A DNA stretch of 64,000 nt from Phoronis australis (lineage: Eukaryota; Animalia; Phoronida). Of the stretch, positions 19,641 to 57,700 are shown piece by piece. The DNA lies in NCBI GenBank assembly GCA_002633005.1, contig NMRA01000382.1:190307-254306 (forward strand), given 5' to 3'. A program made the position numbers and the translations under genes. Position 1 is the first letter of the stretch, and each line of letters starts with the position of its first letter. The notes beneath the pieces were generated by a model. It was not told the DNA's origin. It did not search any database and saw only the letters and a list, made by a program, of their open reading frames with translations.

Positions 19641-21161
19641 TCACTTCTAGAATAGATCAAGACCAATTAAATAAACCACGGGAAACCGTAATTAATTTCT
19701 GGGATTATCAACAAACCGTGTTTTTACTCAAAAACTACGTGGCAAAAGGCTGTTTAAAGTCCAGGGTATTGCGTTTATCGGACAGATTGTTGTCTCAATA
19801 TTTTTATTACACATCCCAACATCGCCACGTAGACATTTTATATACATGTATTGTTGACATTTGTACGTTAGTAGACAGGTTAAAAGCGAACACTTGCAGT
19901 AAGAAAGGGATGGGAGTTAGGAGACCAGTCGAGCCATCAAGTGCAATTCCTGGAATTTAAAAATGGGCTCTCGGAAAAAAGGCGACAGCATGCTTCTTTT
20001 CAGTGTGTGAACATTACAAGGAAACAACTGATTGGCAAAAAAGCCACAGATATTGAAAGCACTCGTCCCGTTAAGGCTGCTTTCAACCAACACACCAAGA
20101 TATCTGCGTTGGACCCAAATGATGGCCCTTCTTTCAGAATTATCGTCTTCAAGTTGATGATGATCGACCAAGAAGCCTGTTGGGTGATGAATATCAGAAG
20201 AATCAGGATTTTGAAGGAACATCATGCGACGATAAGAACTGCTTCAGAGGTCATATCAAATGTTATAAGGCGTCTCTTCATTACAGAGTCTTTCGTCAAT
20301 CCAGTGGACAGGTTTATAATACGACCTGTCTGACTGAAAACAGTTCAGAACCGCTTGGACACAACTTCGATCATGAATAATAACAATTCGATTGCAACTT
20401 GCGATACCTACGAAAACGAAAAAAAAAATCCAGCGTTGTTGGTGCTTTTGACGAAGTTGTCCTATTATTAAAATCGCAACATTGTGTTAAATTGATAATA
20501 AACCTTTTCTTAGCTCAAAGTAGTAATGTTATGCTACTCCAACTGCCATTTGCTAGTACATTTACTGGTTATGATTTATAATACATTGTAAAAAGCATGT
20601 CCCCCACAATATCAAACTATTCCAAACAAGCGATTACTTATATCTTGAAAACGTGTACATGTTTGTTACAAATTGAATGAGATGGCTCAATTTCTGAACA
20701 AAATCTCCGAAGCTTACTGTATAATTATATCAAGTTTGATATAATATCATCACGTACATGTACCTAACCAAGTAGGCCTTCCCTGTCAGGAAACAAACTT
20801 GAATCCCTTTCAACTTCAACATTCCTTCGAAATTAAACCAGCCGTTACATGTTGAAGTGGTGTCACTGGGTCAAAAGAAAGACAAGTTCAAACATTCTTG
20901 ATGGATCACTCATTCATACATTGTACATGTAACTTTACAGATGCTCTCGTAAAGGTCATGTTTCCGGCGTGCTAGTTTCGTTTCGATTTCTTTTCGCTGT
21001 GTTAATACGGTGGCAACTACCGGCTGTCTAGTTGCTAGCTTAGTCTCTAGGATTACTCGATGACATAATTGGAATCTAGTGATGTGACAACTAATTTAAT
21101 GTGTTTTATTTTGTCAGTTGATTACTACATTATTAAGTTAACAATATGTCATGTTCCGTAG

Positions 21162-21434
21162 AACCATGCACAATTCACCTGTTTGGGAGGGACAATCTTG
21201 AATCGAAATCGACTACTTCCAAAGGGGAACGGTGCATGACCTGGTCACACTCGGATGTGGTCGTAAGACTTCACGAGACAGAAATAGGAATGAAGGGATT
21301 TAACAACATGCCTATACAAGTGCAGAGGTCAAACCTCTGTAGAAATCCAGACAACCGTGCAAAAGGCCCATGGTGCTATATTGACGGCAAATTCCCATCG
21401 TGGGACTACTGCAGAGTTGAACACTGTAAAAAGG
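21162..21434 (+). CDS. Kringle-domain exon 2
   Basis: C..STTSKGERCMTW..NLCRNPDNRAKGPWCY..WDYC..HC; acceptor CCGTAG, donor G|GTGAGT; 273 nt, phase 1-1. Confidence 0.9.
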
Positions 21435-22039
21435 GTGAGTTTCAATTGCATGACACACTTGATCGAAAATATCATACTTAAACTATTTTGGCATTTTGTT
21501 CAGTGCGGAATACTTTCCAACGATGCAATGATTGTTGAAATCTTCCTCATAAAGATAATGATATCGGTGTCTAAGCCAAGGTCTAAAGGAAAAACTCGCC
21601 AGAAACGTCTTTATTTGTGGCGAAGAGGAGCTAACCAGGCTTTTTCCTAGGGAGCATATCACAGAACAGCCGTTCGGAAAATACATGTTGGTCGAGAATA
21701 AATGAGTGATCATAAAGAAGCTATTATTATCGTATCCATGGTGGTACAACAATTCACAAATCAAATTTTTTGATACTATTGTTAATACCAATAATTTTTC
21801 AAGTATTTATTATCATTTAATTACAAGTACAGAAATCAAACAAACAAACAATCACATAAGTACACCCATTCATTCACGCGTCCACACCTCGGGAGAGACC
21901 ATTCTCGTATATCATATGCAGTAAATAGCTCCTACATGTACATGGAGTTAAAGTGAACAATGGAATTTCCCCAATTCCCATAAAAGCTGTCATATACAAA
22001 TTTATTAATGCATTATAGTACTAATAATTATATGTAACG

Positions 22040-26711: not shown

Positions 26712-29470
26712 TACTAGTGCCCTCTCTGGAATACCCCCCCAACCCGGCATAGGTCACAATGTACCCAATTGAACTCTCACCATTCAAAATGTTAACTATT
26801 GTTACGCACAGTGAAACTTGCATAATTCCTATCTAATTGCACCAAATAATTCAATGCAAATAAGGAAAATCTGTGTGATTTGACTCTGGGATTGAGTATG
26901 TGCTTTCGAATTTTTACCGGGTTGTGGAATACTAGAATGTCGCAAAACGTTGCATATTCAAGTTTCACATTCAATCCGAGTTCGACTGGTTTTATTGAAA
27001 TCAAGTATTTCAGTGTCATGGTGAAATTGATAGTTAATCTGGGTACAACTTTACCTAGGAGTTGAGTTGAGTTGAATATGGACTGACTAGAATGATCTCC
27101 CCATGTGCGTAGGAGCATATTATTTTCCCTCAAGAAATTTGCTTGGAACCTCAATTTAATATCTTTGCAAATGTCATCCGGTAAGGTGATTGGTAGGAGT
27201 ACAGGGTATAGTATTTTATGTTTACTATAGTACATGAGATAATTTTATTTTTACTGTAAACTATTATGGTTACATAAGATCTCTCGTGAAGACCATGCCA
27301 GTACCTTCAATGGTGGATTGAGAGGACAGCTAAGGGGTCATGTTTCCGGCCCCCTAAGACGCTACAAGATCATTTGGCAGTTGGGGGGGGGCAGGGGGTA
27401 AATGTCTGATGGGCAAAACCCTACTCTGCCCTAACCCCCCAACTCAAAATCCTGGACCCCCACCATCCCTGATCTTTACATGGATAACATTCCGTGTAAA
27501 TGGGTTATGTCTGGATTCTTAAGAAGCTATCACATACTGTTATGTATGCTAATATCTCATTGTTTTCAGGTCTCCATTAACTTGGTGGAGTACTTGGAAG
27601 AACTGGACATCCAAACATTTGCATCGAAACAATCACCAAGGGGTTGTATTGGGCTGTGTAAATCCACATGGCAGGTAGAGCTTCATATGCTTCATTGTTT
27701 AGTTAAAAATAGTGCTGCTATCAAGGTTTGAATTTGAAACAATATGAAATATGTCCTTGATTTAGCCAATGGGCTTATAATCTTTAACAAGCTCACTGAT
27801 TCTTGTAGCCATTTGGTCAAGTCAATGTAAAGCTTCTTGGTTTTGTTTTAAGTTTCAAAAAGTACACGTGGACGTACACATATGAGATTAAACTTTCAGT
27901 TCTAACCCTGGTTGCCGGCTAAATGTCCATGAAACATTAGTAAGAAGACAATTCAGTTCTATGCTGGCTGGAGACAGCTGGTTAGAATACAACTAGCTCT
28001 GCTCATTATGTAGAGTTGTGCATTGTCTTATTAGATTAACGAATTGAACAATGAAAAGTTCATCAAAATACTGGGAATTGTAGTTTATTGCAGTTGCCAA
28101 CAGTTTCATCATTTGATAAAGATATTCAGTAATTTGTCATAGAATTTCAACTAAAAAGTTACAGAACACGATACTTGGTTAGCCTAAAGTCCAACTTTTA
28201 TTAACACAATACGTAACTTTTTTTATATGAACGGTTTGTTCTAGATTGTGATAGCATGGTAGGTGACCATGTGCATGTTTTCTATTCATGTTGTGTAGAA
28301 TAAGCTTAATTTTTAATGTCGCGAATCCAGGATTGAAACTTCATTCAAAACAGTATGTGGAAAACTGACCCACTGCAGCACATGTTTGAAGTAAAATTGC
28401 AGACTAGTCTTGCACTTGAATCCGGGAGAGTGATTGATTAAATTTTGAGTTTAAAGACTATTTTCTAGGCTCTGTATATAAGTCAGGAAGTTTTACGAAT
28501 CAGTGTTGTATAAACAGCGCGATAAATATCCAGCAAGTTAAGTTGTCTTATACTGATAGCTTTTACCCGTCTGTTATTAAAATTTGTTGTCTTTATTGAA
28601 GAGTGTGCCTTTAACAATTGTTGGATGAGGAAAGCTAGCCAGAGAACACACCGTACGCACTTACGGACTGCAGCTCATGAACCTATGAGTTCAGTTATCT
28701 AAGCTCAGAAACGCGAATTTGTAGTCACAAAACGTGGATTATTTGCCTTTGAAGCTAAGCGCGCAGATCCAGCTAAAGAAGATTGAGTGGCTTGTGGTCT
28801 AGCATAGGGCCCTTTCACATTGACTTAACTCTTGTCTGAACGGAGCATCGACGTATACTCCGAACTTAACTGGACCGTTCATTCTGGCTTTGGTAGTTAA
28901 TGAACTTCGAAGTAAACAGTAGGTGACGATGTCGTGATCAAAGGTATCGCAAGGTAGCACTGCACGCTAAGATGTGACAATTTGGAAACATTTAATTGAC
29001 ATAAAACATATTTTTAAATTGATTGATGATTATAAGAGTAAGGTATAAGCAAATACTAGCCATCACACTACTATGCAATTGTTAATGATAACAGTGGCCC
29101 CTGGCAATAACTTCGATAGGACCGAAGTTGATCGTTGATACTGCGTGGCAGCGTTGACGCTAAGCACTTAAATCCAACTGTTTAGTGGGAAGTTAACTGG
29201 CGTTGTTAACTTCCTTTCCGGACCAAAGTTTAAGCTTTCATACTGACATCAACTCCCAACGACGTGTCGATATTAGTATGACAGGCTCTATAGATAAGGG
29301 TATGAAGTTCAGTACCTTTAAATTAAAGGAAAAAGAATATTTTTGGGGTCAAAGGTCTAAGTTTTCTAATTTCCATCTCGTATAACCAGGTTGTACTCAG
29401 GGTTACTTTTAGTGAAACTTGTTCGCACCATGGAGTGTATTGGATTTACTGTTATTATGATTGTCAACAA
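26712..29470. repeat. Dispersed repeat copy B (homologous to 497-2780, with ~0.4 kb extra at ~27743-28155)
   Basis: Direct alignment by eye with copy A. Confidence 0.9.
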
Positions 29471-40339: not shown

Positions 40340-41620
40340 GTATTTTTTTGTAGAACAGTGAGCTGGTAGTTGAGTGACTGCGTCTTGTACAGTCGGGCTG
40401 ATGTGACCTTTGTTTGTAAAGTACATGAATTCTAGAAATAATGAGTATTTTTCCAATGTTGTATCGGCAAGTTTGAATAAGTCTTTACAAGAGATAGTAG
40501 GAAATGTGTTATTGGGCGAATATCCTCTTATTTCGTTAAGAAAAATATTCAATTCTTTGAATGAGGCTTTTATTCTGACCATGTTTTGTGGTTTTTATTA
40601 TATTTTCTACGTGTTTAGAATGTTCATTGCATTGGTTAAAATGAAGAGGTTCACCAGATTGTTTGAGTGCTCTATAACATAGTGCGTTTTAAGCTCGCGC
40701 CTAATCTGGTCTAAAAACATGTTTGTTTTTTTTTGATAGCAAGAGCTTTAAACTTGGATGTAATGTTTTTCTCTACGCTGTTTGTTAGTTCTTTATTGAA
40801 TCAAGATACTACAGTATCGAGACCATTTCCACTGAGAATTGTATCCCACTCGTGGTTGATTTAGTCGCTGTGCAATTCAATTTGATTGATGTGCGGTATT
40901 TCCAATCACGTTTTTAAGAGAGGCTTCTTTGTGAGCTTAACATTATGGTACGGTCGTATGTGTATGAGTGACCGAGGGGGGCAGAACGAACGTGGACAAA
41001 TATGTATTTGAGGTTGTTGGTAAAACACAAGTTAATGCAAGATTTGGGATTTGCGGGGATTCTTGTAGGCTCGTTGATCAATTGTACAAAGTTGTTTTCA
41101 AGTAGAACGTCGAATAGTTCTATTCCCGCATGGTGATCTTAGTCGTCAGGAAACCAGGTAATTTTTCAAGCGTTGAAATCATCGTTCACGATGACTGCTT
41201 GATTATGTTAAGAAATTTCAAGATGGTGTTTGGATAAAAGATTGAAATCTGCATTGCACTCGGCAGAAGAAATCCCAGTTAAGTGTCTTAAAATTTGCGT
41301 GTTATTCAATCCACCATGTGCATACGTTTCTCTAATTTTATCAGAAAACACCTTATATCCAACAGATTTATCAATAAACAAGATTATAGCTCGGTCACTG
41401 TTACTATGATATGCCAAAGCATAATCAGGAATAGATATTTTTTCTTAAATTTGTCGCCAAAAAATTCCAGATTCGCATATTGCAACAGGTTTGTAGTAGC
41501 ATTCAGCAACAGTGTGATGTTAATTGATGTTTGTGGAAGGTATATCAAACTTGTTAGATCCAGGGTTGGATTCATTGTCACCAGATCTAAGGAGAAGAAA
41601 GGACCGAGATGAGAACAATT
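40340..41620 (-). mobile_element. Decayed CR1/L2-group LINE: 2A-like N-terminus, APE endonuclease and linker
   Basis: Minus-strand FLLLRSGDNESNPGS (41600-41556) and FVQLINEPTR..SCINLCFTNN (~41020-41095), then a K-rich post-endonuclease region. Confidence 0.7.
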
Positions 41621-42602
41621 TTTATACCTGGTTGCGTCGAAGTGCCATGTTTCAAACTCCTGTTTTTCACAAATGCAACCAGGTTGCGTGCACTTACCAT
41701 CAAGACAGTTAATTAAACCAAAAACTGATTTAAATAATTAAATCAGTTGTTGGCCACGGTAACACTAAAAATCAGACAACTGCAGCACAAATAAAAAGTT
41801 AGTGTTAAATCACCGTTTTGGATATTCATTAGACATCATCAGGATCCCATTTACAAGAATTTAGGATAACCCTTCAAAACCAGCACGCCGCTGATTCTCT
41901 GAATAACATGCAGAGCTCAGTGACTTTGCAATTCTGGTGATGACCAGGTACTGACTATATTCCCCGTATCTCTCACTTCACTTTATGGATGTTACTCGAC
42001 CTGTATGTTGGCACTTGTTGTTCTAAATCGTTGTAAATATGATCTTGATGATGTCTAATGAATAGACGGAACGTTGATTTGACATGAACTTTTTTATTTC
42101 TGCGGCGAATGTCCGGCTTTTAACATTACGACAACATTGCTAAATTGCTAATTGACTTGTGTTTTTGAGTGATAAGGTGTTGCTGGATTTAAGAGTTTTA
42201 TGTTCAATGAGTATATATTCAATACATACTATTGGCTTTCCACCGCAAACATTCACATGTAGTATGAAAATTGTATGCACATACACGAAAAGTGTAACAG
42301 TGGAACTAATCGTTTGAATTCGTCACGAGCAATTATTTTTATGACTTCAAGGAAGAACGGGATAAAACACAATGAATAACCTAAATAAACGGAATGAACT
42401 TAAATTAAACGGCTGGGGAGATAGCAACCCGTCATGCGAGAAGGATACAGACAACCAAAATGGATTGTCACTCACGTTTTGTTAGGCTCATTTTTTTGAA
42501 AATGTATCCTCCGAACTGGCCGTTTAAGAGGTCTGTTTTCAAATCCAGACACATCAATGACAGTTAATTGCCAAAGTGTGCCCGGTGGTACATTTACACC
42601 AA

Positions 42603-42745
42603 CTCTATCGATAAAGTTAGTAAGTGTATCGATAAAATTTATAAGTCTACCAATAAACTTATTAATTCTATCGATAGTTATAGTAAGTGTATCGCTAGAT
42701 TTTATAATTTCGCCATTAAAGTTAGTAAGTCTATCTATAGAGTTT
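42603..42745. repeat. 21-bp minisatellite (consensus ~TCTATCGATAAAGTTAGTAAG), about 7 units, inside a probable MITE
   Basis: Periodic TATCGATA/GTAAGT units; flanks CGGTGG..(42583) and GCCACCGTA (42781) are partly inverted. Confidence 0.75.
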
Positions 42746-44388
42746 GCAACGGAGAAAAAAGTTGCGTGCCGTCCTTTACAGCCACCGTAGTTAACACGCA
42801 GGTTCCACTTAACGATTGAATCAACTGAACCCCTTTTAAGGTAAATGGTCAATGTGCGCAAAACTTTTTTGAGCTAGACTTTTACATTTCACACATCAGG
42901 TTATTATGGTAATGGAAAGCTTTTTACTGAGCTTGATGGTTAATAGGTGCAATTTTGGGACTGTTACATGATCTTTCTTTTTCAGGTTACGCACCCACGC
43001 AGTAAAATGGGTATCCTGATTGACTGGTCGGCCAGTTTTTTAGTGTTTATCACGAAATATCCAATACAATGAATAATATATAACCCAGAAAGCGCCAATA
43101 CGAATTATATCGGGGTTAAATGAATACAAAGAAAACTATAGACAATTATTATACACAAATACATCAATTTAAAGTGGTATTAAGCTTTTACTGACATAAG
43201 ATTACGAATGTTAATAAACCGTTTCCATACACTTGTATACAATTCTATCTACTGGCAGTCGGCATACAGTCGTGTCATTATCAGGTTTACAGTTTCAAAC
43301 CATGTTTACATAATACAGCCCACTTATTATCTGCTTTCATATGATCAGCCCATTTTTAGCCAACATATCGAAAATCCACAGGCCAGGCGAAAAAAAACAT
43401 GCACAGGTCCACCTTCTTGGGAGTTAAATATAATACCACAACTAATTGTGAATAGAAAATAATTAATAAAAAGTAATAGTTAACAAACTGTGTCGGAAAC
43501 CATCCGAGGACGTGTTAGCAATACAATCGCACGAAAGTCTCGTTTTGCGAAACCACTTAATATGTATTACTATGGTAATTTGTCACCCTTACCCTAATTG
43601 AACAAGGCACACCTTTTGGGATGTGTTCCTGTCTTTATGAAATTACGAGTACTATGCTGGTCTACACGTTCCCACATGTCTTTAAGTGTGTCGGTTGTTG
43701 AGTTTTCTTTAAAGCTGCATATTCCTTATCAACTCTTACTTTTCCTGATTGTACTTGCACACACCTTTCACCAGGAATTCAAAAAGTGGACCTTGAAACA
43801 TATTTAAATTTCCACGGTTTTAATAGGGCATAGCATTTTTAGGTTGCTATTCAAGCCCTTAGCCCCAAAAGTCAAAGGTCAGGTGAAGAAACATGTCATA
43901 CATCCAAGTCACCGTGTGATAGAATACATGAGGACACAAGAATGGTCTAAACAAAAATGGAATTTTGAAACGTACTCTTTGGGTTGGAACCTGAAGTCCC
44001 TAATAACCTTTATCAAGTTAAAACCCAAAACATTCAGCATTGGTGGAGTATACTGTCATTGATCAACATGTTAGGAAACATATCTATGTCAAATATCGTC
44101 ACAGCTATTGCAACAAACGTTAACTGGGCTGCTGCGACGCCTATATCGGCCAGCATCACAGTTAAATGCATCTTAGTGTTCCAAAATGTTCACGCAATCT
44201 CAGCTTCGTTTGGCGGTGTAAGTCACCTGCCGTAAACTATTTCGCCATGTACATGTATTGAAGGCCTCGCAAAATGGAGGCTGCATAATTAACCATCGAA
44301 AGTAAGCGTGACTTACATCGCGGTACATACTTTTTACATTTCTGAATCCTTTGTCAAACATAGTGCCATGACATGTTTTTACTTGCAG

Positions 44389-44670
44389 AGATAAACCCCG
44401 ATTGCAAAGTTGACGTTAAAGGATTTGGCTATGACGGTGAGGTTCAGTACGCCAGGACTGGAGATGAGTGCAGGATATGGGCTAGTCCGGAAGTTCAGAG
44501 ACACATGGTCACAAGGGAAAGTTTAATGACATCATATACCATGTGGTCAAGAGCCGTACAACTTTCGAACTTTTGTCGAAATCCGGATCATTCGAATGAG
44601 GGTCCTTGGTGTTACGTAAAATCAGAGGATGTGCCTTCGTGGCGTACTTGTGAAATCAAAATTTGTAACG
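44389..44670 (+). CDS. Kringle-domain exon 3
   Basis: C..G.GYDG..RTGDECRIW..NFCRNPD..GPWCY..WRTC..IC; acceptor TTGCAG, donor G|GTGAGT; 282 nt, phase 1-1. Confidence 0.92.
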
Positions 44671-44689
44671 GTGAGTTTTTGGTGTTTGT

Positions 44690-45390
44690 CCGGACTGCCT
44701 CATGGTGAGCCATACCGGAGCGTAACCGGAAAGCAGGCATGAGAGAAACCCGTCACTGTCTTCTCATGTTTGCTATCTTGGTAGTGCTTAGTACCCACGG
44801 CTTGGCGAACACATTCTTCATGCTTCCCTCGCGCCTCACTCACGCTTATCTCGCGCTTTTTTAACGCATTTGGTAGTTGTGGATAAGTACCGTGATGGTG
44901 CGCCAGGCTAAAAAAAATCTATAGCTGCATATACATGAGACATTGTTTGTGTACACTGTACCTCCCGAGTAATCCGTTGCTTCGGCATCTTACACCAACC
45001 AGTACCGACTAACTCCGTAATTTCACGTATTTGTCACACAAAATAACTTCATTAACTCATTTGCCGTTACATTTATGTTGTCCAGTTCATGCATCCACAG
45101 CCTGTCCCATCAACGGCTTATCCGTGGTTAGTAAAGACTTAGACCAATTTAGTGGCCTGAGGTATAAATGAACAAACGCATGCCTCTACCGACCTTCACT
45201 GTCGTGTTTACAACGTTTCGCGGATGGTTATATTAATTCGCCCTAAACTTAGTTCACGCATCTATATATGTGAATGTACACATGCACTTTCACTCTGTCC
45301 ATTCTTGTGCGGCACTCGTGGAACAGAAAATTCCAATAAGCTCCATCGGGAGGCGGCATCTGAACTACCTGTTCCCTATTGCAAGCGTAT
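44690..45390. repeat. Second copy of the MITE+repeat at 35577-36260
   Basis: Shared blocks GTAACCGGAA, GCCAGGCTA, CGAGTAATCCG and CCCATCAACG. Confidence 0.7.
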
Positions 45391-45482
45391 GTTAAACCCC
45401 AAACCCCAGGCCGTGTTCCAAGTACCATTTCAGAAGCGGGGTCGCCAAAAGAATTTTCGCACCAAAAAAATTTCCCACCAGA

Positions 45483-45710
45483 GATATTTTTCCGATGTTC
45501 TATCGGCAACTTTGAGAAAGTCTTTACAAGAGATAGGAGGAAATGTGTTATTGGGCGAATATCCTCTTATTTCGTTAAGAATTTTCCAGTAGCCTAAGAG
45601 TTTTTAAAAAAATATTTAATTCTTTGAATGAGGCCGTTATTCTGACCATGTTTTGTGGTTTTTATTATATTTTCTACGTGTTTAGAATGTTCATTGCATT
45701 GGTTAAAATA
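45483..45710 (-). mobile_element. Fragment of the same LINE family as 40340-41620, abutting the Maverick left junction
   Basis: Near-identical to 40443-40640; minus strand reads YWKILNEIRGYSPNNTFPPI. Confidence 0.75.
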
Positions 45711-45715
45711 ACAGC

Positions 45716-45981
45716 GTGTGATTGGTCAGTATTTAGGTATTGCGAAACCAGAGTTTTCGTTTGTCGGGTCTGCCCAAACGTGCCCGAACGTGTCTGAAGT
45801 AACCCTATCGGCCTACACCGATTAGACTCACGTGATCTCAAATGCTAACACGTGATTGGTTAATATTTGCGTATTAAATTTCGAGTGATGTCGCGTGTTG
45901 GGCCTGCCCAAACCTGCCCGAACGTGTCTACAACGGGTAGCAGTGCCTATAAATTGAGCGACTCCGTGTTTCAAGTCATTC
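45716..45981 (+). promoter_or_regulatory. Promoter of the PC4-like gene: duplicated upstream module, TATA box and initiator
   Basis: GTGATTGG (reverse CCAAT) at ~45718 and ~45852; TGCCCAAAC.TGCCCGAACGTGTCT at ~45771 and ~45905; TATAAA at 45948; TCATTC at 45976. Confidence 0.6.
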
Positions 45982-46013
45982 GACGATATTTTCGCAGAAC
46001 GGAACACACCAAA

Positions 46014-46382
46014 ATGGAACAGACTAAAATGCATCCACTTGGCAGGAACATATTTGTAACCGTGCAGGACTTCAAGGGTCGTAAAGTGGTACACATTCGA
46101 CGTTATGACGAAGACAACGCTCGACCGGGCGTACTTTTCCCGACAAAGACTGGAATCTGTCTCACTGAAGGTGAATACGAGAAACTCAAGGGATTCATTG
46201 AGATCGTGAACGAAGACCTGAAAAAAATTAAAGAAAAAACCAGTGTGCCTACCAAGAAACGTAAAACGACCGCTCCTCCAAACCTACCGGTTTTGAACCC
46301 AGCGCAAGGAACAGAGAACAAATGTGCGTTTGAAATACGGAATTGGACCGACAACGCTACCGACAGCCAAGAACTCTTTTGA
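46014..46382 (+). CDS. PC4/Sub1-like ssDNA-binding transcriptional coactivator domain protein
   Basis: LGRNIFVTVQDFKGRKVVHIRRY..PTKTGICLT..EYEKL is the PC4 fold signature; NLS-like KKRK; ATG at 46014. Confidence 0.85.
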   Translation: MEQTKMHPLGRNIFVTVQDFKGRKVVHIRRYDEDNARPGVLFPTKTGICLTEGEYEKLKGFIEIVNEDLKKIKEKTSVPTKKRKTTAPPNLPVLNPAQGTENKCAFEIRNWTDNATDSQELF

Positions 46383-46561
46383 AATGACAGACAGCCAAGA
46401 ACTCTTTTGAACCGAAGAGACCAGCAAACGATATAGACAGAGGCAGTAACTTAGCGTGACAAGAGACGGGGAATGGAACTGCCAAGAGACACTAAATTTA
46501 AATATCTGATTAATGTTGCACTGATCTGAATACTGTGTTAGTCAAGATTTGATAACGATAA

Positions 46562-46600
46562 AATAAATCAATTGTTGAAATCGTTTCCATTGTTGTTCTT
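46562..46600 (+). terminator. Poly(A) signal of the PC4-like gene
   Basis: AATAAA at 46562 followed by the GT/T-rich tract TTGTTGTTCTTG. Confidence 0.55.
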
Positions 46601-46665
46601 GTAACCCGTACAAAATTAATGTAAGTAACTCCTATCGTTCAGTCTGTCACGAGATACAGCGCAGC

Positions 46666-47289
46666 ATGGACGTGAGACTCGCTCACCCGTTCACCATGAT
46701 TGTCAGTGGTCCAACGTCGAGTGGAAAAACTCAATGGACCATGCGACTTTTGCAAAACACCACTACGATGATTCATCCTCCCCCGGACACTGTGACGTAT
46801 TGTTTCGGCGAATATCAAGACGTATTTGCTAATTTGACCCACGTCCACTTTGTCGAAGGGTTGCCCGAACTTTCCAGTTTCGATAGACGCAAGCGACATC
46901 TCGTGGTGATCGACGACATGATGAGTGAAATGGATGGAAGCGTGACAAACTTATTTACTAAAGGCAGTCATCATAGAAACGTGTCCGTTATTTTGATAGT
47001 TCAAAACTTGTTCTCTAAAAACAAAGAGATGCGCACCATTAGTCTAAACGCGCACTATCTTGTGTTGTTTAAAAACCCCCGAGATAAAACACAAATTGTG
47101 CATCTGGCTAAGCAGATGTATCCGGGAAATACCAGATTCGTACAGGAATCGTTTGCCGATGCTACCAACGAACCTTTCGGTTATCTTTTCGTGGATCTAA
47201 AACAATTTACTCCAGAACACATGCGGTTGAGGACGCGCGTTTTTCCAGATGAAACGCAATATGCCTACCTTCCCAAAAAATTGAAATAG
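46666..47289 (+). CDS. A32/FtsK-like genome packaging ATPase
   Basis: Walker A GPTSSGKT, Walker B LVVIDD, SHHRNVSVILIVQN and RTISLNAHY motifs typical of Maverick ATPases. Confidence 0.93.
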   Translation: MDVRLAHPFTMIVSGPTSSGKTQWTMRLLQNTTTMIHPPPDTVTYCFGEYQDVFANLTHVHFVEGLPELSSFDRRKRHLVVIDDMMSEMDGSVTNLFTKGSHHRNVSVILIVQNLFSKNKEMRTISLNAHYLVLFKNPRDKTQIVHLAKQMYPGNTRFVQESFADATNEPFGYLFVDLKQFTPEHMRLRTRVFPDETQYAYLPKKLK

Positions 47290-47317
47290 ACCAGTAAGCT
47301 ATGAGTTACGTCAGTCG

Positions 47318-47686
47318 ATGTCCAGACTTTGCACGCGTAAGATGCCCTCTGAAAGGTTGAGGAGACATTCGGATACACTCAAACTACTATCCAATTGTAA
47401 ACCTAGTATTGTCAAAACAATAATTAAACACGCCGACAAGGATCTCATCCACTGCATTTGCGAAGTAGCTGTCAACGAATTGAACGGAAACCTACCGCTC
47501 ACCGCCAATCAGACATCGAAGCTTCGTAAACACAAAACAAGCCTGCGCACTCTTGTAAAGAAGAAGACGCCTCTGAAAACTAAAAGGCATATTTTACAAC
47601 GAGGCGGATTTCTCGGAGCAGTACTAGCGCCTCTCATCGGTGGCTTGGCGGGAACAATTCTTCCCGGGTTATTCGGTCGAAGGTAA
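47318..47686 (+). CDS. Basic virion core/cement protein (pVII-like) with C-terminal hydrophobic peptide
   Basis: K/R-rich; LIHCICE..NELNGNLPL..LRTL..LQRGGFLGAVLAPLIGGL pattern of Maverick core proteins. The start may be ATG 47342. Confidence 0.7.
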   Translation: MSRLCTRKMPSERLRRHSDTLKLLSNCKPSIVKTIIKHADKDLIHCICEVAVNELNGNLPLTANQTSKLRKHKTSLRTLVKKKTPLKTKRHILQRGGFLGAVLAPLIGGLAGTILPGLFGRR

Positions 47687-47687
47687 A

Positions 47688-48341
47688 ATGGAGTACGCAA
47701 AGAAAATGGCTCTCGTTGACCCTCGCTTATTAGAGTCACTCTCCACACCTAAGTCACCCCCTAGTCTTCCCGTCAAAGCTTTGAGTGGGTTGGACCAAGA
47801 CATGCAAAAAATCGTGGAGCGGAAAGACGTTGATGAGAGTCAGAAAGTGAAAATGTACAATCAGATTCTTCGGCGATTTGTTACCTACCACGACAAAATG
47901 AATCAACCCGTAAAAGTGGAAATTAGGGAGTCAAAGCCGGCCGAAGATAAAAACGAGGAAAAGAATATTTCTAAAACAATGGATGCGGATATTGTTGACT
48001 CCGTCCCGGTCTCTATGCGTCGTAAGGCCCAGTTGCTGCTGGAAAAGATTAAAAAGAATACGAGAATGAGCTGGGACGAACGAGGTCGTGTCTACGTTGA
48101 CGGATCACCCATTGAATCTTCAAACATCACCGATCTCTTGAATGACGTGCTCAGGAAACGAAAACGGATGGCACCATCGGGCTGGAAAGAATTTTCTCGG
48201 GAATTGAGAAATGCGAATGTTCCACGGGAACTTATTGGAAATAAAGAACGTTGGTCGTTACTACAAGAGAGCACGGAAACGACTCCCAAAATAAAGAAAC
48301 GAAAAAGGGTTGTATCGCGACCGCGTTGGACCCCATATTAA
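47688..48341 (+). CDS. Conserved Maverick hypothetical protein
   Basis: 217-aa ORF from ATG 47688 with MALVDP, LSGLDQDM, SNITDLL and PSGW..F..L..NVP..LIGN motifs; located between the core protein and integrase genes. Confidence 0.7.
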   Translation: MEYAKKMALVDPRLLESLSTPKSPPSLPVKALSGLDQDMQKIVERKDVDESQKVKMYNQILRRFVTYHDKMNQPVKVEIRESKPAEDKNEEKNISKTMDADIVDSVPVSMRRKAQLLLEKIKKNTRMSWDERGRVYVDGSPIESSNITDLLNDVLRKRKRMAPSGWKEFSRELRNANVPRELIGNKERWSLLQESTETTPKIKKRKRVVSRPRWTPY

Positions 48342-48372
48342 CGACCGACACCACCTAGACCTCTCATTCGCA

Positions 48373-49464
48373 ATGAGACAAAAGGGAAAGAAACAACGCG
48401 ACATTGATGGAAAATTAAGATGCGTGTACTACGATCCAAGGCACCCGGGAAGTTTTGGAGGATTAGACTCCACTCATAGAGGCCTAAAAGGCAAATTGAA
48501 GAAACGAATTGTGAAAAACTGGCTTAGTAACCAAGACACTTACATTCGGCACAAACCTCTGGTTAGAAATTTTACGAGACGACGCGTTATCGTTGGATCC
48601 ATCGATCAACAATTCCAAGCGGACCTCGTAGACGTCTCCAAGTTGGCAAAATTCAATGACGGTGACAGGTACATTCTTACCTGCATAGACGTACTCTCGA
48701 AATACGCTTTCGCTGTTCCACTCCTAGACAAGACGGGAAAAAGCTTAGTTGAAGCTTTCAAACTTATTTTCGACAGTGGACGGAAATGCAAGACCTTGCA
48801 GACTGATAAAGGAACGGAGTTTACGAATCGTGCCTTTCAGAAATTTCTCAAAGAGGAAGGAGTTGGTTTCTTTACTACCCATAACGAAGAGACCAAGGCA
48901 AGCATCGCCGAGCGTTTTAATCGCACCTTAAAAACAAAAATGTGGAAGTTCTTTACGTCTAAAAACACCTTGAGATACGTTGACGTATTACACGATCTAG
49001 TGAGGTCCTACAACAACACGTACCATCGATCTATCAAGACCACGCCCTCGTCTGTCACACGAGCCAATCAAGAGACAGTATGGCAGACCCTTTACGGATC
49101 GTATACGAAGCAGACCCAACCGAAATTTAAGACCGGTGACCGAGTTGTTATAAGCGTGACAAAGCGTCCTTTCAAGAAGGGTTATTTACCCAATTGGACT
49201 GAAGAATTTTTCACTATTGATAAAGTGCTCTCAAGCACACCGACAACATACACGGTGATGGATGATCACGGAGAAATACTCGAAGGAACGTTTTATCAAC
49301 AAGAGCTACAAAAGGTAGCCAATAGAAACGTGTACAAGGTAGAGAACGTCCTCAAAACGCGTCAAAGAAAAAAGCAGACCGAATATCTCGTGAAGTGGGC
49401 GGGATATCCCGACTCCTTCAATTCGTGGGTTAACCAGCGTCAATTTGTCACCTATAACAATTGA
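48373..49464 (+). CDS. Retroviral-type (rve) DDE integrase with C-terminal chromodomain
   Basis: YYDP.HPGSFGG, QADLVD, LQTDKGTEF, SIAERFNRTLK, and chromodomain YKVENVL..EYLVKWAGYPDSFNSWV; frame intact. Confidence 0.95.
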   Translation: MRQKGKKQRDIDGKLRCVYYDPRHPGSFGGLDSTHRGLKGKLKKRIVKNWLSNQDTYIRHKPLVRNFTRRRVIVGSIDQQFQADLVDVSKLAKFNDGDRYILTCIDVLSKYAFAVPLLDKTGKSLVEAFKLIFDSGRKCKTLQTDKGTEFTNRAFQKFLKEEGVGFFTTHNEETKASIAERFNRTLKTKMWKFFTSKNTLRYVDVLHDLVRSYNNTYHRSIKTTPSSVTRANQETVWQTLYGSYTKQTQPKFKTGDRVVISVTKRPFKKGYLPNWTEEFFTIDKVLSSTPTTYTVMDDHGEILEGTFYQQELQKVANRNVYKVENVLKTRQRKKQTEYLVKWAGYPDSFNSWVNQRQFVTYNN

Positions 49465-49493
49465 TACTTACAACATTGTCCTCATTCACTAGC

Positions 49494-49757
49494 ATGAGTT
49501 CCAACCAAACGGACGCACCCGACGAGAATTTTGAACTTGGTAATATAACAGAGAAAAACTGGCTGTTATTCGGACGAAAAGTACCGAAGAAGGAAATCGT
49601 CTTTTTCAGTCAAATGATCGTTCTATTCACCGTCATAGTGTGGAGTTTATACAATTTGACAACAGGGGACGACAAGCAGACTCTTTGGGTGACGCTGATT
49701 AGTGCTTCACTCGGTATCGTCTTACCTAATCCGTCTTTAAACAAGAATGACAGCTGA
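49494..49757 (+). CDS. Small two-transmembrane protein
   Basis: Hydrophobic segments IVFFSQMIVLFTVIVWSLYNL and LWVTLISASLGIVLPNP; has its own TATA/Inr; overlaps the minor capsid start. Confidence 0.7.
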   Translation: MSSNQTDAPDENFELGNITEKNWLLFGRKVPKKEIVFFSQMIVLFTVIVWSLYNLTTGDDKQTLWVTLISASLGIVLPNPSLNKNDS

Positions 49758-50520
49758 ATCGATGTTCTATCTTACACTTCCGAGCAACAGCTCCATGAAC
49801 TATTTCCCCGACAACACGCTCGCGCAATTTAAGACTAAGCTTCCCAGAGACATAGACCTGGACGGACGTTGGGAGGTAGGACTTGCAGAAATTCAATTTC
49901 CTAACACGTACTACAACATAAGACACGGCGAAGCTTGGATGAGAACGAAACTAGGAAAGGACGACGGGTATGCGCTCAAGACTCTCGCTCCGGGATTTTA
50001 TTACAGCCCAAAAGAACTGGTCAAGAGCGTTCACGCCATGCTTAAAGGACCCTGGGGTTCAGACAGAGATCAAAAAATTAAATTGGGTTATAACGACGTG
50101 ACTAATAAGATGCATATGCGTGTCAAGAAAGGAGCTGAAATTACGTTCAGTCCTAAATTAAAAGACATGTTGGGACTCGATCGGGAGAGTTATACCGACG
50201 ATCCGGGTATTTATTACCCCACACAGATGGTCGATGTTCATCGAGGATTTTACGCTCTCTACGTCTACTGCGATCTCGTGGAATCGGTCGTTGTGGGAGA
50301 CACACTCGCACCGCTGTTGAGGATTGTCCCCTTGAAAGGAAAGCCTGCGGAGACAGTAGTTCGTGTTTTTGAGACCATTCAGTTCAAACCTCTACAACGA
50401 AATCACTTTGGTACCATTGAAATTGACATTCGTGACGATGTGGGCGATGTCATTCCGTTCAATCGTGGCAAGGTTGTGGTCACTCTCGCTCTGAGACGTG
50501 CCCGTTCTTCGTATTTTTAA
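49747..50520 (+). CDS. Minor capsid protein (penton, single jelly-roll)
   Basis: FYLTLPSNSS..FPDNT..F.T.L..L.G.WEVGL.EI and LYVYCDLV..VGDT.APLLR..IEIDIRD motifs of Maverick pentons. Confidence 0.9.
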   Translation: MTAESMFYLTLPSNSSMNYFPDNTLAQFKTKLPRDIDLDGRWEVGLAEIQFPNTYYNIRHGEAWMRTKLGKDDGYALKTLAPGFYYSPKELVKSVHAMLKGPWGSDRDQKIKLGYNDVTNKMHMRVKKGAEITFSPKLKDMLGLDRESYTDDPGIYYPTQMVDVHRGFYALYVYCDLVESVVVGDTLAPLLRIVPLKGKPAETVVRVFETIQFKPLQRNHFGTIEIDIRDDVGDVIPFNRGKVVVTLALRRARSSYF

Positions 50521-50589
50521 CAACCCATAAAAGAGATTGAATAAGCCGCGAACCCTCATTCTACAAGAGGCAACTGTGCTCAACACAAG

Positions 50590-51036
50590 ATGAGACGATC
50601 TAAAAATTTATATAGCTCCGAAAGCAACCGCCACCTCTACGACGACTACTACGCCGTGCAAGCGGGGAGCGGTCTTCCCATTTTTGTCGGCGCTCGCACG
50701 CAAAGGGGGCACGGCATTGGTTCCGTTATCGGGGGACTCTTTCGTTCGGCTCTACCCCTGATCAAAAAAGGAGCCGCTGCAATTGGGAAGCAAGCTTTAC
50801 GGACTGGAATTGACTTTGCGGGTGACTTGTTGGAAGGGAAAAATGCAAAAGCAGCCGCCGTAGAACGGTCCAGGAAGGCTGCGGGCGAGTTGTTGAACAG
50901 AGCTTCCTCGTTTGTTGGTGCACGCCCCCCGGGTACGCCGCACAAGGCTATAAAACGTAGAGTATCGACCAAAAGAGTTAGTTCAAAACGAGGAAAGAAA
51001 AGAGCAACATCGCAACGCAGAGACATCTTTTCTTAA
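50590..51036 (+). CDS. Basic virion protein with amphipathic helix (pX/pVI-like)
   Basis: YY..QAGSGLP.FVG..QRGHGIGSVIGGLFRSALPLIKKGA, basic tail ending RDIFS; lies directly upstream of the major capsid gene. Confidence 0.75.
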   Translation: MRRSKNLYSSESNRHLYDDYYAVQAGSGLPIFVGARTQRGHGIGSVIGGLFRSALPLIKKGAAAIGKQALRTGIDFAGDLLEGKNAKAAAVERSRKAAGELLNRASSFVGARPPGTPHKAIKRRVSTKRVSSKRGKKRATSQRRDIFS

Positions 51037-51037
51037 A

Positions 51038-52010
51038 ATGGCTTTCGTACACGACAAGTCCTGTGAGTGTGTCAAAAGTGAGCTCGATTTGTTTGCCGTA
51101 CCTCCTACTCAGACAAGCATAGAACACGGTCAGTGGGTGGAACACAACCCCATCTCCAGCGTCAAGGACGACGGGCCGCTGCAATTTTTTGTGTCTGGTT
51201 CGGGTGACGAATACGTGGATTTGGCAAATACAGAATTTTACGTCAGGGCAAAAATAACCAACGCGGATGGATCGGATGTCGCCGCGGATGCTGACTGCGC
51301 CCCTACCAACTTATGGCTACATTCGATGTTCAGTCAAGTGGACATCTCTTTGAACGAAAAATTGATTTCTCCTTCAACCAACACTTACGGTTACAGAGCC
51401 TACTTGGAAACATTGTTGTCTTACGGCAGCGAGGCCAAGAACGGACACTTGACTGCAGCGCTATGGTACAAGGATACGAGCGAGAAATTTGACACCCTAA
51501 GCGACGTTAATTTAGGATATAAGACGCGTAAAACTCTTGCGGCAGGAAGCGCTACCATCGACATGAAAGGGAAACTGCACAGTGACATATTTATGCAAGA
51601 CAGATACCTACTCAACAACGTTGACATAAAGATAAGACTGGTGCGAAGCAAGAACTCGTTCGCCGTCATGTCCCCGACACCGGGTGTGAATTTCAAAATC
51701 AAGATCCAAGACGCCGCCTTATTCGTTAGAAAAGTGAAACTCAGTCCCACTGTACAGCTAGCACACATAAAGGCACTCGTGAAAAGCACCGCAAAATACA
51801 CTCTGCGATGCGTCGAATGCAAAGTGTGTTCAATCCCAACAGGACACCTGTCTATGACACAAGAGAATTTGTTTTTAGGTCAAATTCCTAAGTAAGTTAT
51901 TGTGGGCTTTTGCGATACAGGCGCCTATAACGGATCATATGCCAAGAACCCTTTCAATTTTAAACATTACAACATTAATTATTTCTCTCTTTACGTCGAC
52001 GGGGTGCAGG
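51038..52010 (+). pseudogene. Major capsid protein (double jelly-roll, hexon-like) with premature stop and 3' truncation
   Basis: KSELDLF.VPPTQTSI, LHSMFSQVD and YRAYLETLL motifs; TAA at 51893-51895, then in-frame VIVGF..AYNG..NPFNFKH..SLYVDG until homology ends at ~52010. Confidence 0.9.
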
Positions 52011-52597
52011 CTCTTGATAAGGGGGATAGCGACTGAGAACATGTAATAATCTATTTATACCGCATACTGAACGAGAAACATTGCAATGAATCGATCTACC
52101 TTCCTCGACTCGCCTTGGCTTTGTAACGACATTCTACGTCAGAGGCCCGGGGTCGGAGGTCGTGACCTTTTAAGAAAAGCCGAGCTATTTTTTCAAATAA
52201 GGCTTTTCCTCAAAACCAATTGAAAAATAAAACAAAATAGAAATAAAGTGAATCTATAAATTGAGGTTTAGCAGCTATTATAGGTTACTACACATCATAT
52301 CACGCTAAGCTTCGACCTGGAAAATTTCGTCTGCTAAAGTAGGTTACCACTAGTAACTGGCTATAATGCTCAAGTCAAAGGATCCCGACGACACGATACT
52401 CGCATTCAAATTGGAGATCGGTGATTTACGAGTGAGAGATTATGAGAGAAAAATTTCACTGAATTAAAATATCGTTTTTTTGAAATTATGCGTCTTATTT
52501 TTCATAGCGTATAAATGTCGGTGCAATGCCCTTTGCTAAACATGCGATTGTTGCGCGTGCTCATTAAAGTATTCTATTTTTACGTTCAATGACGTCA

Positions 52598-52672
52598 GCC
52601 GCTGAGTGGTGAAGTGGTAAAGTGGGCGACTCGAAACCCCTTGAGGCCCGGGTTCGATTCCGGCCTCGGTTT
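52598..52672 (+). ncRNA. tRNA-derived sequence (pseudo-tRNA or SINE head)
   Basis: A-box TGGTGAAGTGG, B-box GGTTCGATTCC, loop CTCGAAA; stems imperfect and no T-run terminator. Confidence 0.55.
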
Positions 52673-54510
52673 CCCGCCAAAATGTTATCTCACTAGTGAG
52701 ATAACTTTATGGGTTATTACACGGTTGTATCTGCCATTCGAGGGTAATATTGTGGTATAATAAAAAATATCAGTAAAATAATACAAAAACGAAAGACTGG
52801 ACACTGAGTACGTGAAATGAAATAAAAAAACAAAAAAATTTAAAAAATCCCTAAGAGAAGAGTTTAGAAAATTTCGAACAGTTGTCGTAAATATAGAATG
52901 AGATCACTTTCCGAAATTATACTGGTCCTCACTTTGAAATCGTTTTCTTTCCTTGTGAAGACAGAGAATATACATCGTTTACATATGCACCCCGTGTTTA
53001 TACATTCGGTGACGGGTCACATGTCCAATATCGTATTACCAAATATAGTCGCGTGGAGAACTCGGAGGAATGAAATTAATATTATGACATAATGCATTCT
53101 GTGCACCCGTCGGCCTTTTGCAGCTAATGTTGGATATACCATCTAACATGTCATTAACTTTGAGAAACTCCAAGGGCTAGTCTGAGAAAAGGGGGAATAT
53201 TCGAACAGAAGAAAGCTTATGTAATCAAACGGGTTAATTGATGGGACACGTGTCCAGTACGAGACAGAGGGAAAAATAGAACGGAAGAAAAATTAATAAG
53301 AAAAATTTTGTAATCGAATACGTTAATTTATGTGACCTTTGTCTAGTCCGACAGCTGTGAAGTACATAGGAAAATATTACGATGACGCCGGTTCATTGAA
53401 GTTAGAATTCGAAAGGCAATGGCTACATCACGCTTTGCTAAAAATGTATTACGTGGTTAGGACGAGGGTAAATCTCGTTTTAGCCGTAAAGGAGTACGAC
53501 GGTACCAGGAGTACTACTACAGAGAAATGAAATCGGCAATCAAAGTGTCTTGTTATTAGTATATGAGGTATGACGTCATTGAGACTTCCTTCCGGTATGC
53601 GGATGGCGTCAATTCCGGTTGCACTCGTTACACTTGACCTTTGACCTTTCGCCTTTGACTTGTGACCTTTGAATCGAGAACCGCTGAAACAGGGTGCCAG
53701 AACCTCATACTATACTGGTCTCACTTTTTAGAAAGTATGAAGAAAACATAAAGTCTTGCCTCAGTCTTCAGATAAATCATGACACACGTCTGCTTACTAT
53801 CGGCGACCAATAAAACTCCTCGATAAAACTCAAAACTGCCCCATAGCAAGAATATCTAACATACCTAACAACTACTGTTTATCAGAAAGTCACAAGAAGG
53901 TGCTGGATGCAAACTTGTTTAATAGCGGTTTTAAGCAGCATAGCAAATCCCAAGCCCAAAACGCACAGGTCACGCGAAAAAAACATGATATGTTTCCATG
54001 CCCGGAGGAAATAGATTACGTGACGACACAGGGTGTACAGGGATGGCCTAAACTTGAGATCGATATTTGAAGCGTACCTCACTAACAACCATCATCAACT
54101 TAACGCCCCAAAGATTCAGTATTGATTTAGTCCCATGTCATTGATAAACGTCTTAGAAAACATCTTGGACACTAATAATATCGTCTTAATCCATGAAATA
54201 TTCCCGAGACTTACGTCAAATAAACTTACAGCTATGACAACAAAAATTTTCTCTACTGCTGAGATGCCGACATCGGCTAGCATCCCAGTTAACGTGTGTC
54301 TTAGTACTGCACCATTTTCAATCAAACTCAGTTCAGTTGGCAATGTAAGTCTCCGGTGGGAAGCCGTTTCACCTTGTCTTAAACGGCTTGAGAAATCGAG
54401 GGTGCATAGTCAACCACAACTAGTAAGTCCATAATACATCGTAGTTGATGCTTTCTACATTTCTGAAACCTCATTCAAACATAGTGTCGTAGATTGATTT
54501 TTTCTTGCAG

Positions 54511-54792
54511 AGGCAAGCCTCGGATGCAAAGTTGACGTTAAAGGAACTGACTATAACGGTAAGATTAACTACGCCAGGACTGGAGATGTGTGCAGAGTGT
54601 GGAGTAGTCTTGAAGTTCAAAGGCACATGTCCAAAAGTGAACGTTTAATGTCATCTTATAACAGATGGTCAGGAGCTGTGAAACTTTCGAACTTTTGTCG
54701 AAATCCGGATAATGAGGAGGGCGGTCCTTGGTGTTACATACAAGCAGAGGATGTACCTTCGTGGCGTACTTGTGATATCGAGATTTGTGACA
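54511..54792 (+). CDS. Kringle-domain exon 4 (duplicate of exon 3)
   Basis: Acceptor TTTCTTGCAG, donor A|GTAAGT; 282 nt, phase 1-1, six Cys; 61 of 94 residues identical to kringle 3 by hand count. Confidence 0.92.
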
Positions 54793-57700
54793 GTAAGTTC
54801 TAGCGCGCCACAAAATATCAGATTTAGAAGCTAAGGGCTGTGCTGTTGTGAATTCATACTCATATTTTTCTTTTATGCACTACTGAAAGATACGTAAAGA
54901 TACTCCTAACGTCGAAAGTACACCATACATCTTTAGTACACATCAACTTGGTGTCTACGGTACGAATACACGTACGTCGCCTATGCACGAAACAAGCTCG
55001 TGCGATACGATTTCTGTCGATATCCGTGTGACGTTATCTTGTATAAGGTTCCTTCGACCAATATCACGATGTGCAGCAAAATTGGCGGAAAATCATATTT
55101 TGACAAAATATATATACACTAACTAGGAACAACATTCACTTCCCATAATTACTCGCTCGATGGAAAAAGGACTTTCAGGGTTAAGGTGACACTGCTTTTA
55201 GTTTTAAATTTCAATGCTTGTAAGTGTACATGTATATAGCAATTGACTGAAATAACTCAAAAAGAAGAGCCAGAGGTGAGGTGGTTTTCTTTCGTGTAAT
55301 TGGCTGAATGGGAAATAATACTCGATTTAACAAAACCGCAGTCTGTAATATTTTAGGGCTTATTGTACGTTTTTGGAATGGTAAGTCAGATTCTGGAAAA
55401 ATCAAGCATGCCATTGAATTGGTTAAAATACCTAGAAAATGGTGAGATATCATAAATACCGAGACACGGGTTAGTGGCAATGAGTTGAAAAGTTGAAATG
55501 GGGTTGTCTGTCTGTCTGTTTATTGCTAAAAGTTGTCAGTACCTTTCCCTATGCGTCAATGAACACTGCTGAATGAGGTGATTGCAAGGCTTAGGGAAAA
55601 ACTCGTTTGGACTAAGAAACCAATTATTTAAATACATGTACATCACGGTAAACATTAACGGTAGGATTTTACCCACCTTTTTTCAACCAACACTTAACAC
55701 TCGCCAGAAGCTTCTATCTGAATATAACACTTTTTACGTGTCAGTAAGAGTAGCATGTCAACAACAAGTCATGAACACCATTACTCCTTCGTCCGGGTTT
55801 GGAACTGGAAAGGATTTGCAACTGATACCTTGCTACCCAGTTAAAGTAATGTGATTTCACCTTCGGATAACCTTTAATTTCAAACTGATGCCACATCTTC
55901 AGGATGATCACAGGCAGTTGGTTGTCGTTGGTACTCATCGACGAGGCCGTACTTAGTGGAAATCTCAGTGCTAGTAATGTATCTAGACCCCAGGCATTTG
56001 CTGGCCAGCAGGACGTTGGCGACTTCAGATATTACAAAGCATTAGGTAAACGATGTCATACTATACTCCGTCACCTGGGAAGGACATCTCTGTGCACTTA
56101 AGGACACACAATCTTTAACTGAGTAAAATATGCGTGTTTGAGAATAAATCAGTCAAATTTATGAATTGGTTATCAAATGAAGGTCTTTGGACAATAGGTT
56201 GCAACGCATTTTTCGGATGTGGACGAGAAAAATTAAATTTCTTCCAGGAAGAAACGATGCCACCTACTAAGATTGTACCGCAGTAGGTCCTGGGACTCAT
56301 GTGACACTACATTAGAAATGTTTGGATAAAAAAGCAAAGACAGACACACCATCGACAGACTTACATGTATTGACAAACAGCCAGCTGAAGAAATCATCAA
56401 GCCCAACTTTCATGACTACGCGTTTTGTAAGCTAAACCAAGCATTCGGGAGTAGTCCGATCCCGTGAGTGCCATACTTCACGCAGAAATTCAAGTTAGGA
56501 CTGAAGCAAAATATGATACCTTAGAGGGAGTCTAATCGCATGATTTGTGCAATGTAACTTTGCTTATTAAGTGTGGAAGAAATGGGTGACATTACTAGAG
56601 AGACGGGAACGATTTTTGTCAGTAATGTATACCGTTAAACGCTTCCAGTTTTATATCTACATGTGTATAAGGCCAAGCTAGTACGTGATGCGTACATCAC
56701 CCAGTGTAATACAGAACTGAACTGCTTTGATTTTACGGTTTACCAGCTCCCGGTATGTGTATATAAAGTTATCTAAACTGTTTTTCTGTCGGCACATTTG
56801 TCAGCCATCTCTTCTTAACTCAACAGATTCTGAAGGAACTGCTGCCTTTGGAGGTGTTGATCACGGAAATCAACTTAGGCCCATAACCCATATTCCTCTC
56901 TACAGCCTTGCTGGCATAATTGTCTATTGGAAACTTCAGTATGCGTAAGTAAATTTCCGTCTTGGAAGTGCATTTTTGTGTTTTCCAATATCAATTGTCT
57001 TTCCAAGATTGGTTCTTTGGCGAAAACATCTTTTATCCTGGTCTACAACTACTTTTCCTAAGAATTCAGTGACCGTTATTGACTGTTGCGTTCAAACCTG
57101 TTCAGTGGGAACACACACTTGTTCCACGTGGCAGATTGTCATGCATATGGTTGTCGGTCGTGTTGTAAAAATCAATTTGTCCTTCATCAATGATGCAGAT
57201 AAGCAGCGACCCCCTGACACCCGACAGTTTAAACTGCAAATGTGGTATGCTTATTCACACTTTCGGTTGAGAAATCATGTCTATGGTGACATGGGAATGG
57301 AAGCTACGTCTTTATGAGTACTCAATCACTTCCCAATCTACTTTTAAACAACGCCCTGCGGATTGCGCATATACTCCTTACGCATTACGGCCAGGTGGGG
57401 CCATTTATTTAGAGTGATGGTTATTAAGGAAGCCTGGAATGCAACCAACAAAAAAACGAAAGTGGTTCTATGCCAATGAAGTAGTATTCAGCCTGCTTAC
57501 CAGGATTTTTTCGGTATGTTCGTAAATATTTTGAACTTCTCTCGATATCAAACCATGCCTGTTTACTTTCCGGATGTCGATCTCATATCTGCTCGCCTTT
57601 TCGTTGATTTTTCTCTCACAAGCGAAATCCTATCTTCTTATATCATATGGCAAGAAGTACACGTATTACACTTCCCTTTCACTTGTGTGGAAAGTGAGAG

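Follow-up and report, generated by a model that had tools for sequence, protein, structure and literature searches.

A probably recent, truncated Maverick/adintovirus insertion between kringle exons of Phoronis australis

Mavericks, or Polintons (PMC8097293; PMC4028283), and adintoviruses (PMC8502044) are described as carrying an A32-type packaging ATPase and a retroviral-type (rve) integrase with a chromodomain in tightly packed, intronless open reading frames (ORFs), with two conserved ORFs after the ATPase and the penton gene placed one gene before that of the double-jelly-roll major capsid protein (MCP). They reach low to moderate copy numbers, and most copies are broken. In vertebrates, where the module genes are the same, 134 elements were counted as intact and 2,166 as lacking terminal inverted repeats (TIRs), at a median of 8 copies per genome (PMC8097293), and coral elements with core genes missing are mentioned in another report (PMC11131425). 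The locus studied here lies in a 64,000-nucleotide (nt) stretch of Phoronis australis contig NMRA01000382.1 (hereafter the window, to which all positions refer), where the block at 45711-52009 shares this gene content and arrangement. Unlike intact Mavericks, it has no gene for the polymerase pPolB or for the protease, no TIRs and no end motifs, and, also unlike Mavericks, it has a PC4 gene directly upstream of the ATPase gene. All its genes are on one strand, whereas vertebrate elements mostly have two convergent modules, with a one-strand layout in Xenopus tropicalis.

We put at roughly 80% the probability that the block, which lies between two host kringle exons, integrated recently as a member of a multi-copy Maverick/adintovirus family, was truncated afterwards and is unable to make particles or to replicate by itself. 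As a fragment derived from a Maverick, it no longer qualifies as an intact element; the Maverick/adintovirus kind itself is already known. Eight unbroken plus-strand ORFs span 46014-51036, the MCP gene starts at 51038, and 93% of 46014-52009 is coding. The block is the sole cluster of long ORFs in the window outside an N gap, with a CpG observed/expected ratio of 1.22 compared with 0.81 for the rest of the window. The identification of its packaging ATPase, rve-chromodomain integrase, penton and double-jelly-roll MCP genes is supported by domain, motif and fold matches. The ATPase of the A32/FtsK type (46666-47289; 207 amino acids, aa) matches Pfam Pox_A32 (E 1.7e-05), is 46-61% identical to its relatives and has a Walker A motif at residue 15 and a Walker B motif at residue 81. 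The integrase (48373-49464; 363 aa) matches rve (E 2.4e-10) and, at its C-terminus, Chromo (E 1.2e-09), and its D-D-E motifs were present in a motif check. The AlphaFold model of the penton, or minor capsid protein (49747-50520; 257 aa), has a predicted local distance difference test (pLDDT) score of 92.7, and its best Foldseek matches are the mavirus penton (E 8e-12) and adenovirus penton bases. The model of the open part of the MCP (pLDDT 66.6) gave 74 Foldseek matches at E<=0.001, led by the poxvirus D13, iridovirus, mavirus and PBCV-1 capsid proteins. An initial annotation, made from the sequence alone, had already reported eight open ORFs, on the strand of the host gene, and a Maverick/adintovirus identity, and both points are borne out, the first by the ORF coordinates and the second by Pfam, by the folds and by the gene order of the relatives.

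The same annotation called the block near-intact and gave the MCP gene a single stop. The stop exists, at codon 286 (51893-51895), and the gene is not otherwise whole: homology to the MCP runs on beyond the stop and ends at about codon 324 (52009), while full-length relatives have 433-437 aa, so that the last ~110 codons, about a quarter, of a gene of ~435 codons are missing and 'near-intact' overstates the case. The plus-strand remnant (51038-52009) runs directly into a very high-copy host repeat (52009-52760, no strand assigned), with a summed contig depth of 184,642 compared with ~40 for single-copy contigs. Since 31 contigs of run X1 and 28 of run X2 carry further letters ahead of position 52009, the window's copy of this repeat has lost its own head. 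The contig pieces listed at 52009-52714 are ~8-13% divergent from the window, and the repeat is older than the block. The junction at 52009 reads as a deletion in which the virus lost its end and this older repeat its start. The protease gene lies directly 3' of the MCP gene in 54 of the 54 relatives with room for it, which suggests that one deletion took the MCP tail and the protease together. We rejected the possibility that the element had inserted into this repeat and split it, as the repeat's head motif had no match in the window at up to 3 mismatches. The right flank showed neither a tRNA or short interspersed nuclear element (SINE) nor an Rfam family. A C-truncated hexon is described for some adintovirus sequences (bioRxiv 10.1101/2024.03.25.586562); unlike these, the window MCP ends at a deletion junction and has a stop that the matching contigs do not share, i.e. 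damage to a single copy.

With 9 pPolB and 10 protease relatives as queries, tblastn and hidden Markov model (HMM) searches of the 64-kb window gave no credible remnant of either gene, the best protease matches (E 6e-4 and 3e-3 over ~38-70 aa) lying far from the block. No inverted pair flanks the block, and an AGTAGT/AGAGAG/ACACACA end motif is absent from 44672-46014; the TIRs with AG/AGT end motifs and the 6-bp target duplication that mark intact Mavericks (PMC8097293) were not found here. These repeat, motif and homology searches agree with the earlier remark that no pPolB, protease or TIRs are visible. On the left, the block abuts a 225-nt repeat (45485-45710, no strand assigned) that recurs in pieces at 40446-40642 and 55412-55430 with 94-95% identity; it may be either a host repeat or the edge of the element, whose left boundary would accordingly fall at or between 45485 and 45711. 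The claim that a young insertion was trimmed at both ends holds for its youth (see below) and for the right-hand loss of the MCP tail and the protease; trimming on the left is only likely, and pPolB may instead have been part of what was deleted on the right, where locus L069 has it.

Contig data point to a family rather than to a lone relic. They include two runs (X1 and X2) of one sample and a low-depth run of a second study (X5), and 32 of ~10,700 matching contig pieces were listed. Over 675-1,615 nt, X1 and X2 contigs show 0 differences from the window flanks; they may come from the reads from which the window was assembled. In X1 and X2, the depth of bins in the block is 13-21 times as high as the median of the listed single-copy flank contigs, a summed contig depth that gives no copy number and is read only as many related molecules, and single places in the block are covered by as many as 9-10 different contigs. 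X5 gave assembled contigs for nothing but the block and the repeats (88-98% identity). Since the excess depth is found where contigs also match the window's flanks, the block appears to belong to a multi-copy family. A contig joint leading from 50468, in the penton gene, back to 46796, in the ATPase gene, at single-copy depth appears to be another family copy with an internal rearrangement. A 248-nt X9 piece over the PC4 gene was discarded as a sign of expression: its RNA origin is conjectural, it extends over repeats too, and at the one place listed it agrees with the other contigs.

Searches returned 1,735 MCP and 616 penton homologs. The named MCP relatives are invertebrate 'F54H12.2-like' proteins of 55-59% identity (Littorina, Holothuria, Apostichopus, Lytechinus, Antedon and Anneissia). 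The closest relatives, an MCP of 83% (P0001), a penton of 72% (P0121) and a PC4 protein of 56% identity (P0242), are each on a 7,431-nt ENA contig, likely one and the same. In an MCP tree of 49 rows (34 database proteins, 14 loci and the window, none dropped), the window is sister to P0001 (100/99), which has a full-length MCP of 435 aa whereas that of the window is broken, and both fall within a four-row clade with P0002 and P0003 (100/100). The proposal of an undescribed lineage stands in a weak sense, in that this clade holds only contigs without a name, and is tempered by the many MCP relatives that exist. IMG/VR yielded no relative (0/13 and 0/37 pattern matches).

The gene order of the block was compared with the best 80 of 578 metagenome loci (L001-L080) and with 11 further capsid loci (L081-L091) from the bacterial metagenome-assembled genomes (MAGs) of a genome collection. 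The order ATPase-ORF-(ORF)-integrase-(transmembrane ORF)-penton-ORF-MCP recurs across the 80 loci. The protease gene directly follows the MCP gene in all 54 loci noted above, and pPolB lies upstream of the ATPase gene in 15 of the 16 loci with room for it, L069 having it downstream and on the other strand. In one locus, L084, the set of nine genes is complete and ordered as in the window, preceded by pPolB and followed by the protease; both it and the 'F54H12.2-like' MCPs are on branches separate from that of the window, and L084 keeps the pPolB and protease genes that the window copy lacks. The bacterial MAG contigs that carry the Maverick capsid loci L081-L091, several of them from animal symbionts, are likely contaminated with host DNA. 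Loci L009, L014, L044 and L069 have rearranged module orientations, and in L002 (6325-6766) ~19-nt tandem repeats start ~200 nt past the protease gene and look like an element end.

The first gene of the block encodes a protein like those with the PC4 fold that bind single-stranded DNA (46014-46382, plus strand; 122 aa from the likely ATG; Pfam PC4 E 3.1e-13); its ORF is open from 45888, and an AATAAA follows at 46562. The final 25 nt of this ORF are tandemly duplicated right after its stop (46359-46411), and the relative P0241 has a similar short tail. With PC4 queries from L069 and L075, on which these counts rest, PC4-like genes were found in 26 of the 80 loci, 25 of them on the strand opposite to the MCP; two were checked with Pfam, one of which fell below the cutoff. 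The window's own PC4 protein found 0 of 80 loci by tblastn and only weak matches by phmmer (best E 0.001). PC4 therefore belongs to the gene kit of the family, and its position directly before the ATPase gene is unusual.

The insertion is young. The block's 1,847 codons would give, analytically, 248 expected stops per unit of divergence, and the probability of at most one disruption is 0.36-0.65 at 0.5% divergence and 0.002-0.04 at 2%; open frames are thus expected in a copy less than ~1% diverged, with no need for host selection. Protein change was not accelerated relative to the sister, with 9 versus 7 changes in the MCP (p 0.80) and 4 versus 3 in the penton (p 1.0); four of the nine MCP changes of the window fall within residues 248-264. 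At the listed block places, every contig differs from the window, stop codon included, and these differences are therefore either private to the window copy or assembly errors. An excess of departures at conserved columns in the ATPase (18/104), integrase (36/143) and 122-aa ORF (7/29), not seen in the penton (1/41) or MCP (5/84), was set aside as confounded, because the homolog sets of the first three contain no close relatives.

In the course of events that we favour, an active family member would have been inserted by its rve integrase into a probable intron, and a deletion from about MCP codon 324 into the older neighbouring host repeat would then have cost the element its right end, together with the rest of the MCP gene and the protease gene. 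The same deletion would account for the loss of pPolB if that gene was on the right-hand side, as in L069; otherwise pPolB would have been lost separately on the left. The remaining frames would be open through too little time rather than through upkeep by the host. On the published picture of these viruses (PMC4028283, PMC8502044, PMC11161782), a copy without pPolB, protease, whole MCP or TIRs could not by itself replicate, mature particles or be excised; at most, if transcribed, it might provide ATPase, integrase or penton in trans. The block would then mark this invertebrate host as a carrier of a recently active adintovirus family, in a clade without a named member.

Several points weigh against this interpretation. 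No pPolB-bearing member of the window's own family was seen, and the layout with PC4 before the ATPase occurs in 0 of the 80 loci. Among the listed contig pieces, none spans either junction, and the excess contig depth, which is no copy number, could include free viral DNA. The listed differences between window and contigs, a biased 40 of 1,759 rows, include 22 in the block, or 18 coding differences once three in the stop codon and one non-coding difference are set aside, and 11 of these 18 are at third codon positions (p 0.014 against 1/3, from biased rows). This excess implies that not all the divergence is neutral decay; it fits a replicating lineage and would also be expected under host selection.

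The alternative that best survives, though we hold it unlikely, is that the family natively has no pPolB. It would then be a satellite-like element of ~7.4 kb, with PC4, ATPase, integrase, capsid and protease genes, served by the polymerase of a helper Maverick, and the window copy would have lost its right end only. In its favour, PC4 and its own promoter-like region are found at the position where pPolB ends in the relatives (gap 143-740 nt), the 7,431-nt contig that the closest MCP, penton and PC4 relatives probably share has no room for a 3.5-kb pPolB gene, and the 19 closest MCP matches are all on contigs of at most 7,613 nt. As proof of a unit-length genome, however, the ~7.4-kb contigs are weakened by a control: of the 27 loci that include the start of the ATPase gene, 10 have their own first position no more than 700 nt from it, with lengths of 5.5-10 kb (7.0-7.6 kb in three), and 2 begin at 701-2,000 nt. 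Such starts suggest a variable junction between the polymerase and virion modules, and most of the control contigs come from a set whose longer contigs do show pPolB, which points to assembly breaks. L084, moreover, has the same nine-gene module together with pPolB. A bolder version, that a polymerase-less class of ~7.4 kb packages and integrates itself and is multiplying now in the host, the 13-21-fold depth being partly free viral DNA, is less probable again. Were the family natively without a polymerase, animal Mavericks would have a satellite that bears capsid genes and integrates, and helper-dependence in animal polintons would become testable. The literature searched, by listings and mostly without subscription papers, described neither PC4 in animal polintons nor an animal satellite lacking pPolB.

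Very improbable is an assembly artefact, in which a collapsed repeat or a free-virus contig was misjoined into the kringle locus. Repeats adjoin both block ends, the listed contigs bridge neither of them, and a consensus error could account for the several places, stop codon included, at which the window disagrees with all contigs. On the other hand, a distinct, decayed copy, and not a collapsed consensus, would have just such private differences, a stop and a cut within a gene; contigs lose low-depth variants within collapsed repeats, and both flanks, which match X1 contigs perfectly over the lengths given above, belong to one pair of kringle tandem units. Least credible of all is the selective retention proposed by the initial annotation, i.e. 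domestication as, for example, an antiviral decoy capsid or an integrase function, for which the eight open frames, the excess at third positions and the host-gene strand of the block could be cited, since the family is multi-copy by depth, the MCP is both stopped and truncated, youth alone gives open frames, what would have been kept is an entire viral operon instead of a single gene, and ancient placental Maverick insertions are reported as neutral and degraded (PMC9683012).

Upstream of the PC4 gene, 45711-46013 (plus strand) is a likely promoter or subterminal region by its motifs, with two 78-nt copies (76% identical), each with an ATTGG (inverted CCAAT) box, and a TATAAA at 45948. The other ORFs, again on the plus strand, are a basic one of 122 aa (47318-47686) that is kept in relatives and occupies, by position only, the place of PM in vertebrate Mavericks (PMC8097293). 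A 217-aa ORF (47688-48341), in the PZ position by place only, is 31-39% identical to those of L001, L002, L082, L084 and L085; Pfam gave it no match and an Atlas search only weak, low-score, unrelated leads. An 87-aa ORF (49494-49757) has one clear and one weaker hydrophobic stretch by hydropathy and is 37-52% identical to counterparts in L001, L002, L052, L084 and others. Between penton and MCP, a basic 148-aa ORF (50590-51036), in the PW position by place only, is 33-60% identical to relatives in nearly all loci; it may be a pX-like core protein. None of the nine block ORFs has a PLA2 domain in Pfam; PLA2X as against GasderminX/Cupiennin accessory genes, together with the PolB class, separates Alpha from Beta adintoviruses.

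The block is flanked by two host kringle exons on its own strand, at 44389-44670 (Pfam Kringle E 3.6e-16) and 54511-54792 (E 2.1e-16), each of 282 nt, in phase 1-1 and with AG/GT boundaries. They are tandem duplicates, with 81% DNA identity and ~850 nt of shared upstream intron. The simplest reading of these splice signals is that 44670 and 54511 probably bound an intron of ~9.8 kb, although tandem gene copies or unseen exons may lie behind the arrangement instead; of the earlier placement within a kringle-gene intron on the host-gene strand, the same-strand exons are thus observed, and the intron itself rests on splice signals. A WSC exon (4311-4688) and kringle exons at 15587-15889 and 21143-21448, all on the plus strand, belong to the same gene or genes. 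The description of the surrounding transposable elements as decayed fits the ~8-13% divergence of the adjoining repeat and a window with no long transposable-element ORF. A contig joint from 44446 to 54687, at single-copy depth (56), links the two kringle exons in a shifted register, and its likely source is either another, third kringle paralogue elsewhere or a recombinant allele without the interval. Elsewhere in the window, a ~2.3-kb repeat pair (498-2754 and 26712-29415) has 84-89% identity and a ~400-nt insertion in one copy, and high-copy repeats at 41329-43320 include inverted arms (41793-41870/42017-42094) and a 21-nt palindromic tandem array (42601-42747).

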